Below, piece after piece: positions 2,829 to 16,369 of a DNA stretch of 34,294 nucleotides. The position numbers and the translations under genes are program-made. The stretch covers positions 1 through 34,294 of the forward strand of contig JABDRC010000256.1 in the NCBI GenBank assembly GCA_013041945.1, read 5' to 3'. The stretch is from Halobacteria archaeon. Its GTDB lineage: Bacteria > Pseudomonadota > Gammaproteobacteria > UBA9214. The notes beneath the pieces were generated by a model. That model did no database searches. It was not told the origin of the DNA and saw only the letters and a program-made list of their open reading frames with translations. How positions within the stretch are numbered: the stretch's first letter is position 1; every line of letters begins with the position of its first letter.

Positions 2829-5030
2829 ATGCATACCGGCGACGGATCACATTATCATTCGCGCGACTATAGATATGTTCTGCGTCTGTCGGGTGAGGAA
2901 CTCGCGGTAGTCAGGAAATACCGCGATGAACTGGTCGCCTGTACCGCGGGTTTTGCCGAAGTCTTCTACAACTATCTTTTCGATAATCCGGGTATCGCGG
3001 AAGTCCTTTATGCCTATGAGGAGGAAGGCGGCGATGTCGGCCAGTTCGCGCGTGCCGAGCTCGCAAACCTGCTGGCCAGTATCGCCGGCGAGATCGGCGG
3101 GCAGCGCGAGGATGAGTTGCTGTCGGCCGGCCGCCGGTACCTGCAGCGAAATTTCAGGCCGGTCTGGCTGATCGGCGCGTATAACCTGCTCATCGATTAC
3201 ATGCACACCATGCTGTCCGGAATGGAGATACATCCGGCCGACCGTATTGCACTGGATACACTGCTGACGCGCCTGCTGTTGCGGGAAATGGGTATCACGC
3301 TGGAAGGCTACTGGATGCAGGCGCGCGACAATGAACGCCGGGAACTCGAACACATAGCGGGCCGTCTTGGCCGCGTGGAGGATATGCTGGCGGGTGTCCC
3401 GCATTTGATGTGGAGCGTCGATATCGACGCCAACAGCCTTGTGTATGCCAATTATACGCTGCACCTGCTTTACGGAGAGGGCATGATATCGCCGCTGCCG
3501 TGCATCGGTGATACACATGAAGAGGACCGCCAGTTGTTACTGACCGCCTGGCAGGATGCGGTCAGCGGCAAGCGGACCCGGGCCGATGTGCGGATCGTGC
3601 TTGCCGGTGATCGTGAGCGCTGGTACCGGGTGTCACTCTATCCGGAGACCGGCCAATCGGGCCGGCCCGCTACGGTGCACTGCATGCTGGAGGATGTCCA
3701 GAACCTGATCAGTGAGCGTGAGCAACTGCAATCGCTGGCAACCACGGACCGGCTGACAGGCCTCCCCAACCGCTCCCTGTGGTCGGACCACCTGACAATG
3801 GCACTCGCCGCTTCGAGACGGGTGCCCGGCTCACAGGTGGTCGTGATCTCTCTCGATATCAACCAGTTCAAGATGTACAACGACACCCTCGGCAGGGACG
3901 TTGGCGATACCGTGCTGTGTGATGTGGCCTCACGGCTGCGTTCCACGGTGCGTGAATCGGACTCGCTGGCGCGGCTGGGCGGAGACCGTTTCGGTATCCT
4001 GCTGCATCCGGTCAACAATGCACGCGAGGCCGCTGAACGGATTATCACCGAAATAATGGACAAGTTCGACCTGCCATTTGCCTACAGGGACAAGCAGCTT
4101 TGCGTGAGTCTGACACTCGGCATCGCCTGTTTTCCCGACGATGGCAGCAACGAGGAGGCGTTGCTGGCAAATGCCGAGAGTGCCATGCAGCGGGCCAAGC
4201 GGAACAGCCTGCCTTACCAGTATTTCGACCCGGTCAATGATGTCAGCCCGGCAGAGCAGCTGCGCTACTCCGGGCAGATACGCTCGGCACTCGACAATAA
4301 TGAGTTCGAGCTGCTTTATCAGCCGCAGATTTCCCTGGATACTGCCCGGATTACCGGCGCCGAGGCGTTGCTGCGCTGGAAGCATCCGGTGGAAGGTATT
4401 GTGATGCCGGAACGCATTATCCCGGTCGCGGAACAGCTCGGGCTGATCACGCCGATAACCAACTGGGTGCTGGTTACCGCGCTGAAACAGTGCCGGCAGT
4501 GGTCATTTCAGGGTGCGGCGATCCCTGTCTCGGTGAATGTCTCGGCACGTTCTTTCCAGAATCCGCGTCTCCTCGAAAGAATTCACTGGGCCCTGCAGGA
4601 GGCCGCCGTGGAGGGCGACCGGCTGGTGATCGAAATTACCGAAGCGACCCTGATGCAGGATATCGATCGCGCCACGGAACTGCTGTCCAGCCTGAGCGAG
4701 GCCGGCGTCACCATCGCAATCGATGACTTCGGAACCGGTTATTCTTCACTTTCCTACCTGAAGCGGTTGCCGATCGACACCCTCAAGATCGATCAGTCGT
4801 TTGTCACCGACGTCGCCTTCGACCGTCAGGATATCGCAATTGTCCGTTCCATCATCGACCTTGGCCATAATCTCGGTTGCAAGGTGGTGGCGGAGGGCGT
4901 CGAAAACAGCATGACCATGGATGCGCTGGACCGGCTCGGCTGCGATACCGCACAGGGCTTCCATATCAGTAAACCGCTGCTGGATGATCATTTCTCTACG
5001 CTGCTGGGGCAAACTGACAGACAATCCTGA
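2829..5030 (+). CDS. Globin-like sensor / PAS / degenerate GGDEF / EAL protein; predicted c-di-GMP phosphodiesterase
   Basis: 733-aa ORF. EAL-domain signatures are intact: EALLRW, VNVS, EITE, DDFGTGYSSLSYL, KIDQSF, AEGVE, QGF. The GGDEF fold is recognisable (DRLTGLPNR ...), but the active site reads GGDRF (aa 384-388, nt 3978-3992). An RESD I-site sits five residues upstream of it. The N-terminus (FAEVFYNYLFDNPGIAEVL ... RPVWLIGAYNLL) resembles a sensor-globin domain. Confidence 0.85.
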   Translation: MHTGDGSHYHSRDYRYVLRLSGEELAVVRKYRDELVACTAGFAEVFYNYLFDNPGIAEVLYAYEEEGGDVGQFARAELANLLASIAGEIGGQREDELLSAGRRYLQRNFRPVWLIGAYNLLIDYMHTMLSGMEIHPADRIALDTLLTRLLLREMGITLEGYWMQARDNERRELEHIAGRLGRVEDMLAGVPHLMWSVDIDANSLVYANYTLHLLYGEGMISPLPCIGDTHEEDRQLLLTAWQDAVSGKRTRADVRIVLAGDRERWYRVSLYPETGQSGRPATVHCMLEDVQNLISEREQLQSLATTDRLTGLPNRSLWSDHLTMALAASRRVPGSQVVVISLDINQFKMYNDTLGRDVGDTVLCDVASRLRSTVRESDSLARLGGDRFGILLHPVNNAREAAERIITEIMDKFDLPFAYRDKQLCVSLTLGIACFPDDGSNEEALLANAESAMQRAKRNSLPYQYFDPVNDVSPAEQLRYSGQIRSALDNNEFELLYQPQISLDTARITGAEALLRWKHPVEGIVMPERIIPVAEQLGLITPITNWVLVTALKQCRQWSFQGAAIPVSVNVSARSFQNPRLLERIHWALQEAAVEGDRLVIEITEATLMQDIDRATELLSSLSEAGVTIAIDDFGTGYSSLSYLKRLPIDTLKIDQSFVTDVAFDRQDIAIVRSIIDLGHNLGCKVVAEGVENSMTMDALDRLGCDTAQGFHISKPLLDDHFSTLLGQTDRQS

Positions 5031-14157: not shown

Positions 14158-14262
14158 ACGGGTGTTCCGGCTGGCTGGCGGTTATGAACGGCTGCGAAGC
14201 ATAACAGAGTTGACCAGCGGCCGGAATGCGTGCCGCTGTCAGTTGTACACGGAGATGCAGGC

Positions 14263-14574
14263 TCAGCGCTTCTGGTGTTTGTACTTCTTGCGCAGGCGCT
14301 CGCGTTCCCGGGGCGACATGTTCTTGTATTCATCACGCTTGCGCCTGACCGCCTCGCGCTTGTTGGGCGGCAGGTCCAGGTATTTGCGTGCGCCCTGCCT
14401 GAGACGTGACTGTTTGTTCCGGTCGAGCCTGGACCAGTCCTTGCGATGCTTTTTCAGAACTTCCTGCTCGCCGTTGCTCAGGTTCTGCCAGGGAATGCCG
14501 TTGTCGGCGAGGGCAGGCGCAGTGCCGGCCAGGCAGGTCAACAGCAGGGCAATCATCAGGGTCCGGAAGTTCAT
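14263..14574 (-). CDS. DUF3106-like periplasmic protein (signal peptide, basic helical repeats)
   Basis: Last 103 aa of track ORF 14263..15153. Signal peptide is MNFRTLMIALLLTCLAGTAPALA. It is followed by W..L....Q..L and R..R-rich repeats (WQNLSNGEQEVLKKHRKDWSRL, MSPRERERLRKKY). The ATG lies 1 nt after the anti-sigma stop. The family call is from pattern memory only. Confidence 0.6.
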   Translation of the reverse strand: MNFRTLMIALLLTCLAGTAPALADNGIPWQNLSNGEQEVLKKHRKDWSRLDRNKQSRLRQGARKYLDLPPNKREAVRRKRDEYKNMSPRERERLRKKYKHQKR

Positions 14575-14575
14575 G

Positions 14576-15031
14576 TCAGGTACTGCCGTTGTCGGTCTCG
14601 CTCTCATTCTGGTTGGCCAGCCACAGGTAGAAATCAAGGTCTTCGTAGATGTCCGGCACCATCCGGGTTTCGGCCACCATATTATTTGTATCAATGCCGG
14701 GCCGGGTTGTCCAGAGGCCCACGGTAACGGCCAGCACCAGGGTTGCGGCCGCCGCATAGGGCAGCAGCGACCGGTGACGTTTATTTGCGCTGCCGCCGTC
14801 CGCCAGTGCCTGCCGGCGTGCTGTCTGCAGCGCACTGCCGATGCTGCCGGTGTCAACCTGCGGTCCCAGCGCATTCGGATCCAGCTGTCGCCAGATGCCG
14901 GTGTGTATACGACAGTGTTCGCAGCCGGCCAGGTGTTGCTCGATGGCGGCTTTTTCCTCGGGCCGGTCGTCCAGCAACCCGGCGCGCAAACGGTCCAGTT
15001 GTTCGGTGTCAGGATGTCGTTGGTTGTGCAT
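14576..15031 (-). CDS. Anti-sigma factor (zf-HC2), single TM, short acidic periplasmic tail
   Basis: 151-aa ORF. The HLAGCEHC motif fits H-x3-C-x2-C. TM helix is LLPYAAAATLVLAVTVGLW. The 44-aa periplasmic tail is rich in D/E. It overlaps the 3-prime end of the ECF sigma gene by 23 nt. Confidence 0.75.
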   Translation of the reverse strand: MHNQRHPDTEQLDRLRAGLLDDRPEEKAAIEQHLAGCEHCRIHTGIWRQLDPNALGPQVDTGSIGSALQTARRQALADGGSANKRHRSLLPYAAAATLVLAVTVGLWTTRPGIDTNNMVAETRMVPDIYEDLDFYLWLANQNESETDNGST

Positions 15032-15605
15032 GGGTCCACACCTCCGCCAGTTGTTTTCTTAATGCTCTCATCGCCCTGAAATGGTGTTGCTTGATACTGT
15101 TTTCCGAGCATCCCAGTGTCCGGGCGGTTTCCCGTATGCTCAGGCCGCGCCACTCGCGGAGAATGAATACCTGGCGCTGGCGCTCCGGCAGTGCCAGCAT
15201 CGCGTCTTCGACCTTCCCCCTGATTTCGCTGGCGACGTACTCGACCTCGGGGGCAGTAATACCGTCCGTTCGTTCGGCATCCGGCAGCTCGTACTCCGCG
15301 GTTGCCTGGCTGTCGTCCTTCTGCCTGAACAGCCCGGTCAGCGATACCAGCTTGTGCTTGCCCTGCTCGATCATGCGGCGACGGCGGATATCGTTGATCT
15401 TGCTGTTCAGCACAGTGCGGAACAGTGCGGGCCAGTCCTGTTCCGGCTTGCCGCGGTAATACTCGACCATCCGCAGCATGCTGTCCTGTACGGCGTCCAG
15501 CGCAGCCTCCCGGTCCCAGAGGGCGGCGTAGGCCACATAAAAGGCCTTTTCCTCGTGCGCGACAAAGAAACTTTCCAGCTGCTGGTTGTTGTTGTCCGGT
15601 TCCAA
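15009..15605 (-). CDS. ECF-type RNA polymerase sigma factor
   Basis: C-terminal 198 aa of track ORF 15009..16043. Region 2 is ALDAVQDSMLRMVEYY. Region 4 is LPERQRQVFILREWRGLSIRETARTLGCSENSIKQHHFRAMRALRKQL. The start is assigned to TTG 15605 because the only upstream ATG (15734) would overlap the His-rich gene by about 60 nt. The start is uncertain. Confidence 0.75.
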   Translation of the reverse strand: MEPDNNNQQLESFFVAHEEKAFYVAYAALWDREAALDAVQDSMLRMVEYYRGKPEQDWPALFRTVLNSKINDIRRRRMIEQGKHKLVSLTGLFRQKDDSQATAEYELPDAERTDGITAPEVEYVASEIRGKVEDAMLALPERQRQVFILREWRGLSIRETARTLGCSENSIKQHHFRAMRALRKQLAEVWTHAQPTTS

Positions 15606-15625
15606 GGTGGCACCCGTTGAACGGA

Positions 15626-15659
15626 CCGCAGGACGACCGTGATGCGGTCGTCCCTGCGG
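15626..15659 (-). other. Strong intercistronic RNA hairpin between the His-rich gene and the ECF sigma gene
   Basis: The minus strand reads CCGCAGGGACGACCG-CATCA-CGGTCGTCCTGCGG. That gives 9 perfect bp plus 5 more after a one-base bulge, with a 5-nt loop. No U-tract follows. Confidence 0.45.
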
Positions 15660-15672
15660 GGGGATTGGACGG

Positions 15673-16305
15673 CTACAGACGTCCAGTATAACCCAGGCCA
15701 GTCCGGGAGCGGGTGCTGTGCCGATTTCTGTCATGTCTGTTTCCATCCCGATGCTGCGAGTCATGACGATCACCGCGGTGTTTGCGGTCTCCGTCGTGCT
15801 TGCCGTGATGACGGTCACCGCGGTGTTTGCGGTCTCCGTCGTGCTTGCCGTGATGACGGTCACCGCGGTATTTGCGGTCCCCATCATGCTTGCCGTGATG
15901 ACGGTCACCGTGGTGTTTGCGGTCTCCGTCATACTTGCCGTGATGACGGTCACCGTGGTGTTTGCGGTCTCCGTCATGGCGGTCGTAATGGCGGTTGTGC
16001 TTGCCATGTCCTTTGTGTCGGTCATGGTCGTCATGACGGTCATGGTGGCGTCTCAGGTTTTTCCAGTAGTGTCTGCCATGGTGCTTGCCGTGTTTGAAGT
16101 GTTGGTGGTGCTTGCGGTGCTTGTGGTGAGGCCGGCGATCACGGTGTTTGTAGTTGTAACCGTGGTCAGAGTAATACGGGTAGTCGTAATCCCCGCTGTA
16201 ATAGTGGACGGATGATTTTCCACCATGCGCACTGGCCGGGGCGGTCAAGCCGAGGCTCAGCGCGGCAGCCAGCAGGGCCGGGGTAATCAGGGATCGTATC
16301 TTCAT
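15673..16305 (-). CDS. Secreted histidine-rich tandem-repeat protein (210 aa precursor)
   Basis: GGAG sits 7 nt before the ATG. The signal peptide is MKIRSLITPALLAAALSLGLTAPASA, ending before HGG. The mature part is dominated by H, D, R, K, G and Y, with repeats of HGKHDGDRKHRGDRH. It runs co-directionally with the flanking genes. Confidence 0.7.
   Translation of the reverse strand: MKIRSLITPALLAAALSLGLTAPASAHGGKSSVHYYSGDYDYPYYSDHGYNYKHRDRRPHHKHRKHHQHFKHGKHHGRHYWKNLRRHHDRHDDHDRHKGHGKHNRHYDRHDGDRKHHGDRHHGKYDGDRKHHGDRHHGKHDGDRKYRGDRHHGKHDGDRKHRGDRHHGKHDGDRKHRGDRHDSQHRDGNRHDRNRHSTRSRTGLGYTGRL
15763..15978. repeat. 45-bp tandem repeat, about 4.6 copies, in frame within the His-rich gene
   Basis: Unit (+ strand): ATGACGGTCACCGCGGTGTTTGCGGTCTCCGTCGTGCTTGCCGTG. 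Copies start at 15763, 15808, 15853, 15898 and 15943 (the last is partial), with a few substitutions per copy. Confidence 0.9.
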
Positions 16306-16338
16306 GGTGCGGCTCCATTTTTGTTAACTCGAATACAG

Positions 16339-16366
16339 TTAACGCGGCTCCGCGGATTTGGTTAAC
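16339..16366 (-). promoter_or_regulatory. Candidate ECF-type promoter (GTTAAC-N16-CGTTAA) upstream of the His-rich gene
   Basis: The minus strand reads GTTAAC (16366-16361), then 16 nt, then CGTTAA (16344-16339). This matches the generic ECF architecture AAC-N16-CGT. It lies about 35 nt upstream of the ATG at 16305, inside the 64-nt psd / His-rich spacer. Confidence 0.35.
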
Positions 16367-16369
16367 GCC

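Follow-up and report, generated by a model that had tools for sequence, protein, structure and literature searches.

A putative autoregulated extracytoplasmic function sigma/anti-sigma module, headed by a secreted His-rich protein and probably directed to envelope stress, in uncultured Gammaproteobacteria

Contig JABDRC010000256.1 of assembly GCA_013041945.1, deposited as a Halobacteria archaeon and placed by GTDB within the Gammaproteobacteria (UBA9214), was analysed over its positions 1 to 34,294; this whole stretch of 34,294 nucleotides (nt) is referred to here as the window. On its minus strand, the block between psd (17263-16370) and suhB (14157-13360) consists of four co-directional open reading frames (ORFs), which encode a secreted His-rich protein, an extracytoplasmic function (ECF) sigma factor, an anti-sigma factor and a DUF3106 protein. 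The genes and the promoter ahead of them are as follows:

16340-16366, minus strand: ECF-type promoter GTTAACC-N15-CGTTA (-35 element, 16366-16360; -10 element, 16344-16340)
16305-15673, minus strand: His-rich ORF of 210 residues, the first cistron, encoding a secreted low-complexity protein rich in His, Arg, Lys, Asp and Gly
15605-15009, minus strand: ECF sigma factor of 198 residues, with a TTG start codon that is kept in orthologs
15031-14576, minus strand: single-pass anti-sigma factor of 151 residues
14574-14263, minus strand: DUF3106 protein of 103 residues, short, secreted and strongly basic

The His-rich and sigma genes are separated by 67 nt, the sigma and anti-sigma genes overlap by 23 nt, and the DUF3106 gene follows after 1 nt and is translationally coupled to the anti-sigma gene. 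An earlier note on this DNA had given these coordinates and spacings and had treated the four genes as one functional unit, and its factual statements all held when the ORFs and sequence were rechecked. Relatives were located by a search with the sigma factor (n = 40), and their loci were then fetched and compared. The order psd/His-rich/sigma/anti-sigma/DUF3106/suhB recurs in 17 of the 19 congeneric genomes with readable upstream sequence, so the unit stands, and the neighbourhood survey that the note had called for identifies the His-rich first gene as more than a chance neighbour. The two readable congeners that lack the His-rich gene are G024 and G007. Two further assemblies lie outside this count of 19, as their contigs begin within the sigma gene and so have nothing upstream of it.

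The promoter is located 35 nt before the His-rich ATG (~35 nt in relatives as well), and both of its elements are kept, with a variable spacer sequence, in every orthologous locus, including those without a His-rich gene. The interval from psd to sigma contains this motif in G024, in G007 and in L046, an outgroup at 60% identity. No ECF motif was seen between the His-rich gene and sigma in the orthologous loci compared. Because the promoter directly precedes sigma in the His-less genomes, the His-rich gene sits within the leader of an autoregulated ECF operon. The element is of the AAC-N16-CGT type typical of ECF autoregulation, as judged from comparative evidence, and its conserved position directly upstream agrees with the proposal in the note that the His-rich gene is a regulated output. 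The exact motif occurs three times in the window's own genome and not at all in a reversed control; allowing one mismatch adds only three more sites. Across 31 genomes of the genus, 62 matches were found versus 35 in the control. Of twelve loci compared, only the window and two close relatives retain a third GTTAAC palindrome (16323-16328). The phyletic link between sigma and motif, considered further below, is the best evidence at hand that the sigma factor would read GTTAACC-N15-CGTTA.

The sigma factor matches TIGR02937 at 80.5 bits (cut-off 42.9) and PF08281 at 61.7 bits, with a weak sigma-2 region (E = 0.025). It has the makeup of a group 4 (ECF) sigma factor, with only sigma-2 and sigma-4 regions in ~200 residues and an adjoining, overlapping and co-directional gene for a cognate anti-sigma factor that bears a zf-HC2 motif and one transmembrane segment. 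NF006550 (PRK09047) is the best specific model, yet the score of 158.1 bits lies under its curated cut-off of 173, which excludes the protein from the equivalog and therefore suggests a related but divergent sub-branch. The anti-sigma factor matches zf-HC2 (PF13490) at 22.5 bits against a cut-off of 22.2, and residues H6, H33, C37 and C40 are invariant in the alignment columns of 37 sequences, constituting an HxxxCxxC motif with an upstream ligand. By this pattern the cytoplasmic N-terminal domain is of the zinc-finger anti-sigma (ZAS) type, and zinc binding is predicted. A transmembrane segment at approximately residues 89-107 is followed by a periplasmic tail of 44 residues with a net charge of -7.6. 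This tail carries PDIYEDLDFYLWLA and the motif PDxYEDLDFYLWLA, both invariant in the window's sub-branch. The protein has the single transmembrane segment of a DUF3619-type partner, and likewise the short acidic tail with ...[DE]L[DE]FYxW[LA] at its end, and it gave no match to PF12279 (DUF3619) at E <= 1. Its structural model is weak (predicted local distance difference test, pLDDT, of 60) and consists of N-terminal helices, the transmembrane helix and a tail helix at residues 129-147; no relative was found in the PDB by sequence.

Membership of the DUF3106 family is clear from a PF11304 match of 50.2 bits (cut-off 24.3, E = 4e-13), a signal peptide and repeated W..L.P.QR helices. The mature protein has 80 residues and a net charge of +16, and its AlphaFold2 model (pLDDT 91) is all-helical, with no relative in the PDB by fold (best Foldseek E = 5.7) or by sequence. 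Assignment as a CpxP/Spy/ZraP-like protein was rejected: PF13801 (Metal_resist) matches at only E = 0.12 and 12.9 bits versus a cut-off of 29.2, and Foldseek returned no such fold.

The His-rich protein has a signal peptide that ends at ASA, directly before HG, and a GGAG Shine-Dalgarno sequence stands 7 nt before its ATG. The mature protein of 184 residues contains 24% His, 27% Lys plus Arg, 15% Asp and 14% Gly and is devoid of Glu. A composition calculation gives a net charge of +26 at pH 7 and +56 at pH 5.5, a doubling over this interval. The contrast drawn in the note between two basic secreted partners (+26 and +16) and an acidic 44-residue tail is thus confirmed by composition. No Pfam or NCBIfam family matches the protein, and only its composition points to His-rich metal-binding proteins (Hpn-like, RcnB). 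Much of its sequence is repetitive:

15763-15978, minus strand: tandem repeats with a 45-nt period, 4.8 copies, encoding HDGDRKH(H/R)GDRHHGK

Orthologs in 17 of the 19 congeners share the signal peptide, a short block after it, the Shine-Dalgarno sequence and the start codon, and range from 100 to 210 residues among those printed in full. Tandem expansion has occurred independently, with units of 15 residues here, 17 in G017 and 18 in G044. The protein evolves fast, at 31-46% identity between relatives versus 70-87% for sigma (tblastn). At 16107-16116 the gene varies in length between samples: 9 nt are missing from a DNA run (X1) and 3 nt from an RNA run (X23), both changes that keep the reading frame. 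The repeat also holds two more long frames open. The first (15009-16043, minus strand) is a 344-residue upstream extension of sigma, and the second (15718-16215, plus strand) is a 165-residue ORF. In relatives the sigma frame is open for 149-381 residues (170 and 149 where the contig end cuts it), and in complete loci it always exceeds the ~198-residue sigma factor; gene callers may mis-start the sigma gene at this locus.

Further sites of the motif point to a small regulon. In 18 genomes it lies upstream of a gene for a lipoprotein of the DUF1318 family (YdbL-like; PF07027, E = 1.6e-20), usually ~40 nt from the ATG and with differing spacers, and in 5 genomes upstream of a gene for a glycine-zipper "17-kDa antigen" lipoprotein (PF05433, PF16998). 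On contig C106 of the window's own genome, GTTAACC-N15-ACGTTT (one mismatch; 4812-4838, plus strand) is located 25 nt before the gene for a DUF3108 protein (PF11306, E = 3e-18) that is secreted and possibly a further regulon member. Another possible member, found behind the motif in three species, is a charged-repeat protein ending in a 17-kDa-antigen domain. In all eight sigma-less congeners with a readable DUF1318 gene, the site at the corresponding position is degenerate: its -35 element reads GTTACCC, in G015 GGTACCC, and its -10 element varies. The motif sites in the window's own genome and in the 31 genus genomes include no metal gene. The 694-residue protein encoded upstream of DUF1318, a candidate YdbH, matches no Pfam or NCBIfam family, and the N-terminus of the DUF1318 lipoprotein may be YnbE-like. 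The YdbL protein of E. coli has a modulating role on YdbH-YnbE, a phospholipid bridge to the outer membrane (PMC11126948; bioRxiv 10.64898/2026.03.16.712125). With a YdbL-like protein among its members, the predicted regulon therefore appears to be envelope-directed, and an envelope-stress regulon of outer-membrane and periplasmic proteins is supported by the distribution of sites.

A second secreted protein rich in His and Lys (216 residues) is encoded on contig C5 of the same genome (12688-13338, plus strand). It combines a stretch of low complexity with a hydrophobic, glycine-zipper-like segment and ends in a domain resembling the 17-kDa antigen, and pairwise BLASTP against the His-rich protein gave weak low-complexity matches only. 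The upstream sequence, GTCACCC-N15-CGTTAACTGTCATCGAG..ACAAAAAT, is identical at 27 of 33 positions to the -10 element and 5′ untranslated region of the His-rich operon, which suggests that the promoter and leader were duplicated.

By its sequence matches the module is placed as a divergent sub-branch of a widespread, uncharacterised sigma/DUF3619/DUF3106 (NF006550-like) family, marked by its own promoter specificity, a zinc-finger anti-sigma domain, the family's acidic tail in the form PDxYEDLDFYLWLA and a short DUF3106 protein. Among 80 family loci from named genomes, DUF3106 is encoded downstream of sigma in 74, and the tail motif ...[YVQ][EQ][DN]LDFYxW[LA] is present in at least 41. A literature search on DUF3106 and DUF3619 returned only unrelated papers, none treating the sigma/DUF3619/DUF3106 module, in keeping with the earlier description of a neighbourhood both widespread and uncharacterised. 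Most family loci carry TCAACC-N15-GCGTT 125-170 nt upstream of sigma with nothing between, whereas a minority have an inserted gene for a secreted low-complexity protein. This protein is of an Arg/Asp type in Nitrospiria and Thiosulfatimonas and is rich in His and Tyr in an Acidiferrobacterales metagenome-assembled genome (MAG; 47% sigma identity), Porticoccaceae, Methylophaga and two other gammaproteobacterial MAGs. A first-gene slot thus recurs across the family, and the fast-evolving proteins that occupy it are related in composition and best described as positional analogues. The sub-branch itself comprises 270 protein clusters, and all organism-labelled matches are from uncultured Gammaproteobacteria; DNA runs holding the locus are from marine sediment and beach sand. 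One locus with 85% sigma identity (L044, CAVYIJ010000001.1) is titled 'uncultured Halobacteria archaeon' and carries a gammaproteobacterial His-rich/sigma locus. Its coordinates match those of G017, where the order from psd to suhB is complete, and the record seems to be taxonomically mislabelled.

Sister modules of the family, present in many relatives, encode a secreted protein of LDxRGDRIxxR 11-mers, a sigma factor, a DUF3619-type membrane protein that does match PF12279, a second secreted protein that is small and acidic, and a DUF3106 protein of the long form, with a promoter of the form TGTCAACC-N15-GCGTTG upstream of the repeat gene. Their Arg/Asp repeat proteins have few His residues (2-6% in the ORF listing). 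The window's own genome carries such a paralogous module on contig C240 (5239-6423; L026), with an Arg/Asp 11-mer protein and a 30%-identical sigma factor; the contig ends just past sigma. The paralogous promoter, GTCAACC-N15-GCGTTG, is a single occurrence in this incomplete genome. As the two promoters differ at key positions, comparison suggests that the two sigma factors may be orthogonal. The small secreted acidic protein (~80 residues) is encoded between the anti-sigma and DUF3106 genes in L017, L019, L024-L028 and L102 and has no counterpart in the window's module. Its motif LLEFLAxWE..G.WIDP resembles the anti-sigma tail DLEFYxWL, and the protein could be a tail mimic.

Two features inside the operon bear on its expression:

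15626-15659, minus strand: intercistronic GC-rich hairpin, 3′ of the His-rich stop codon, with no U-tract
15685-15690, minus strand: TATACT hexamer, within the terminal part of the His-rich coding sequence

The hairpin region has a folding free energy of -35.7 kcal/mol over an 81-nt stretch (z = -2.9). All 12 His-containing loci examined have a strong hairpin, unrelated in sequence between loci, and the hairpin is weak in two of three His-less loci; it therefore belongs with the His-rich cistron, where it would act as an attenuator or 3′ stabiliser. TATACT is present in all 15 loci compared, 76-152 nt upstream of sigma, follows the stop codon in 5 of them and is also found in the 3 His-less loci. 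Since it is kept outside the coding frame, its conservation is at the DNA or RNA level, and the "GYTG" C-terminus of the protein is a by-product. Possible roles are as an internal -10 element for sigma-70 or as a site of RNA processing; no conserved -35 partner was found in the 15 loci. Metatranscriptome contigs map to the His-rich gene (15799-15873 and 16048-16202), to the sigma gene (15366-15570; 205 nt, 1 mismatch) and across the anti-sigma/DUF3106 junction (14477-14667; 191 nt). Downstream of the DUF3106 stop codon, a 7-bp stem read from the sequence (CAGCGGC...GCCGCTG, 14215-14238, minus strand), with no clear U-tract, may be a weak operon terminator before suhB.

We consider it probable that these genes constitute an autoregulated ECF sigma/anti-sigma envelope-stress module within a divergent sub-branch of the sigma/DUF3619/DUF3106 family. 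Genome comparison provides the gene order, the promoter with its phyletic link to sigma and the predicted regulon members. The sigma factor would recognise GTTAACC-N15-CGTTA as the promoter of its own operon, and the secreted His-rich protein, standing first behind that promoter, would therefore be its most direct and probably most abundant output. We infer that transcription continues through the intercistronic hairpin, which would lower or uncouple expression of sigma, anti-sigma and DUF3106; TATACT may give these three genes basal expression. The same promoter would drive the small regulon of YdbL-like DUF1318 lipoprotein and glycine-zipper 17-kDa-antigen lipoprotein, possibly with the DUF3108 and charged-repeat 17-kDa-antigen proteins. 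In the resting state, the zinc-finger domain of the anti-sigma factor would hold sigma at the membrane, with the acidic-aromatic periplasmic tail as a sensing or degradation handle and proteolysis as the presumed route of release. The basic, all-helical DUF3106 protein most likely binds the tail as a co-anti-sigma factor, in a role resembling that of RseB. The signal is probably a perturbation of outer-membrane lipid or charge.

Several points weigh against this interpretation. Recognition of the motif by sigma is a prediction from comparison; G007 has the sigma factor but lacks the motif at its DUF1318 gene, and the sigma-less genomes may form one clade, in which case the phyletic link may reflect few independent events. 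The putative DUF3106-tail binding is suggested by opposite charge, co-occurrence and translational coupling. No metatranscriptome contig spans the His-rich/sigma junction, and these short contigs, which provide the RNA support, can contain DNA. Finally, transcription might stop altogether at the hairpin, leaving sigma to be expressed solely from an internal promoter.

This last point leads to an alternative with two transcription units, in which the ECF promoter drives the His-rich gene alone, ending at the hairpin, and the other genes are constitutively expressed from TATACT without positive autoregulation. The strong hairpin after every His-rich gene, the invariance of TATACT and the lack of an ECF motif between the His-rich gene and sigma are all compatible with this arrangement. 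The hairpin, however, has no U-tract, TATACT has no conserved -35 partner, and the His-less relatives place the ECF promoter directly before sigma, in the usual autoregulatory layout. We regard two units as possible, though on the improbable side.

A metal circuit, as suggested in the earlier note, would have the module sense periplasmic Ni, Zn, Cu or Co, with the His-rich protein as a metal sponge or co-sensor in a CnrYXH-like system. The 24% His and 15% Asp of the mature protein, the weak, sub-threshold Metal_resist match of the DUF3106 protein and the SCO1 and PCu(A)C genes upstream of psd would fit such a function. The Metal_resist match is far under its cut-off and is accompanied by no CpxP/Spy/ZraP-like fold, however, and the Pfam search found no CnrX- or CnrY-like domain. 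Moreover, no metal transporter or chaperone was found behind the promoter motif, and sister modules fill the same slot with Arg/Asp repeat proteins poor in His. A link to copper through synteny with SCO1 and PCu(A)C was likewise not supported: L046 keeps the PCu(A)C-psd-module-suhB order without a His-rich gene, whereas L047 has the His-rich gene without that synteny. With a regulon free of metal genes, His-poor sister slots and His-less relatives that keep both module and copper-chaperone synteny, metal sensing was not borne out, and we consider it unlikely; metal or proton binding by the His-rich protein as an effector is compatible with these data.

A third alternative assigns the first-gene product a role in feedback. 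The polycation would bind the acidic tail, competing with or reinforcing DUF3106, at a strength set by His protonation or metal loading. The opposite charges of the two partners, the recurrence of a charged secreted protein in the first slot of several family branches and the tail-like LLEFLAxWE motif of the small acidic protein in some sister modules are in line with this idea. Against it, most family members have no first-slot gene and still keep the tail and DUF3106, and the rapid divergence of the protein relative to sigma suits an effector better than a specific ligand. We find such a co-sensor role quite doubtful. Its extension to the whole family is speculative and similarly improbable: the sigma/DUF3619/DUF3106 system would be a periplasmic polyelectrolyte or charge sensor whose acidic-aromatic tail is contested by the basic, helical DUF3106 and the basic product of the first cistron. 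The shift to a His-rich product in this lineage, with a charge that depends on pH or metal loading, would then make the feedback on a regulon for outer-membrane lipid homeostasis pH- or metal-gated. Finally, although the repeat region is open in other frames too and the third-position GC content of the gene is 0.64 versus 0.72-0.83 in its neighbours, a chance neighbour or spurious ORF is contradicted by the signal peptide, Shine-Dalgarno sequence and start codon kept in 17 genomes, by natural indels in multiples of three and by the promoter directly upstream, and is highly improbable.

The proposed autoregulated envelope-stress module can be set beside several known systems. It shares with the NF006550 (PRK09047) clusters of Beta- and Gammaproteobacteria the succession of an ECF sigma factor, a single-pass protein with ...DLDFYxWL at its end and a DUF3106 protein that is basic and secreted, as well as an AAC-N16-CGT-type promoter and an optional secreted charged repeat protein between promoter and sigma. 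In contrast to those clusters, its sigma factor scores 158 against the cut-off of 173 and is 29-42% identical to the other members examined (L017-L028), its promoter reads GTTAACC/CGTTA and not GTCAACC/GCGTTG, its anti-sigma factor has a ZAS N-terminal domain without a PF12279 match, the small acidic gene is absent, the first gene is His-rich and the DUF3106 protein has ~3.5 repeats versus 5-8. The rpoE operon of E. coli is autoregulated and encodes the single-pass anti-sigma factor RseA and its periplasmic partner RseB, and the regulon concerns the outer membrane. The window's module resembles this sigmaE-RseA-RseB system in its autoregulated ECF operon, single-pass anti-sigma factor, periplasmic partner encoded directly downstream and outer-membrane regulon; it differs in that DUF3106 and RseB, like the tail and the periplasmic domain of RseA, share no sequence or fold relation, and in its extra first cistron. 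The HxxxCxxC motif with an N-terminal His also occurs in ZAS anti-sigma factors such as ChrR of the Rhodobacter sphaeroides sigmaE-ChrR pair, whose ligand pattern we take to be matched by H6, H33, C37 and C40. ChrR, however, is soluble with a cupin domain, whereas the ZAS domain here is membrane-anchored and paired with a short acidic tail. CnrH-CnrY-CnrX of Cupriavidus metallidurans is likewise an ECF system with small periplasmic partners, but the window's module has no CnrX- or CnrY-like domains and no metal-efflux genes in its predicted regulon.

The family itself is known but uncharacterised, and what is new here is a sub-branch distinguished by a promoter code of its own and by an anti-sigma factor of the zinc-finger type. 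Two paralogous sigma factors in one genome, associated with GTTAACC/CGTTA and GTCAACC/GCGTTG, offer a promoter code that is open to test. Secreted, fast-evolving, highly charged low-complexity proteins emerge as recurrent direct outputs of the sigma/DUF3619/DUF3106 family. The predicted regulon is the first for this module, which is common in Proteobacteria, and points to outer-membrane homeostasis. With these three results, what two large DUF families do becomes accessible to experiment.

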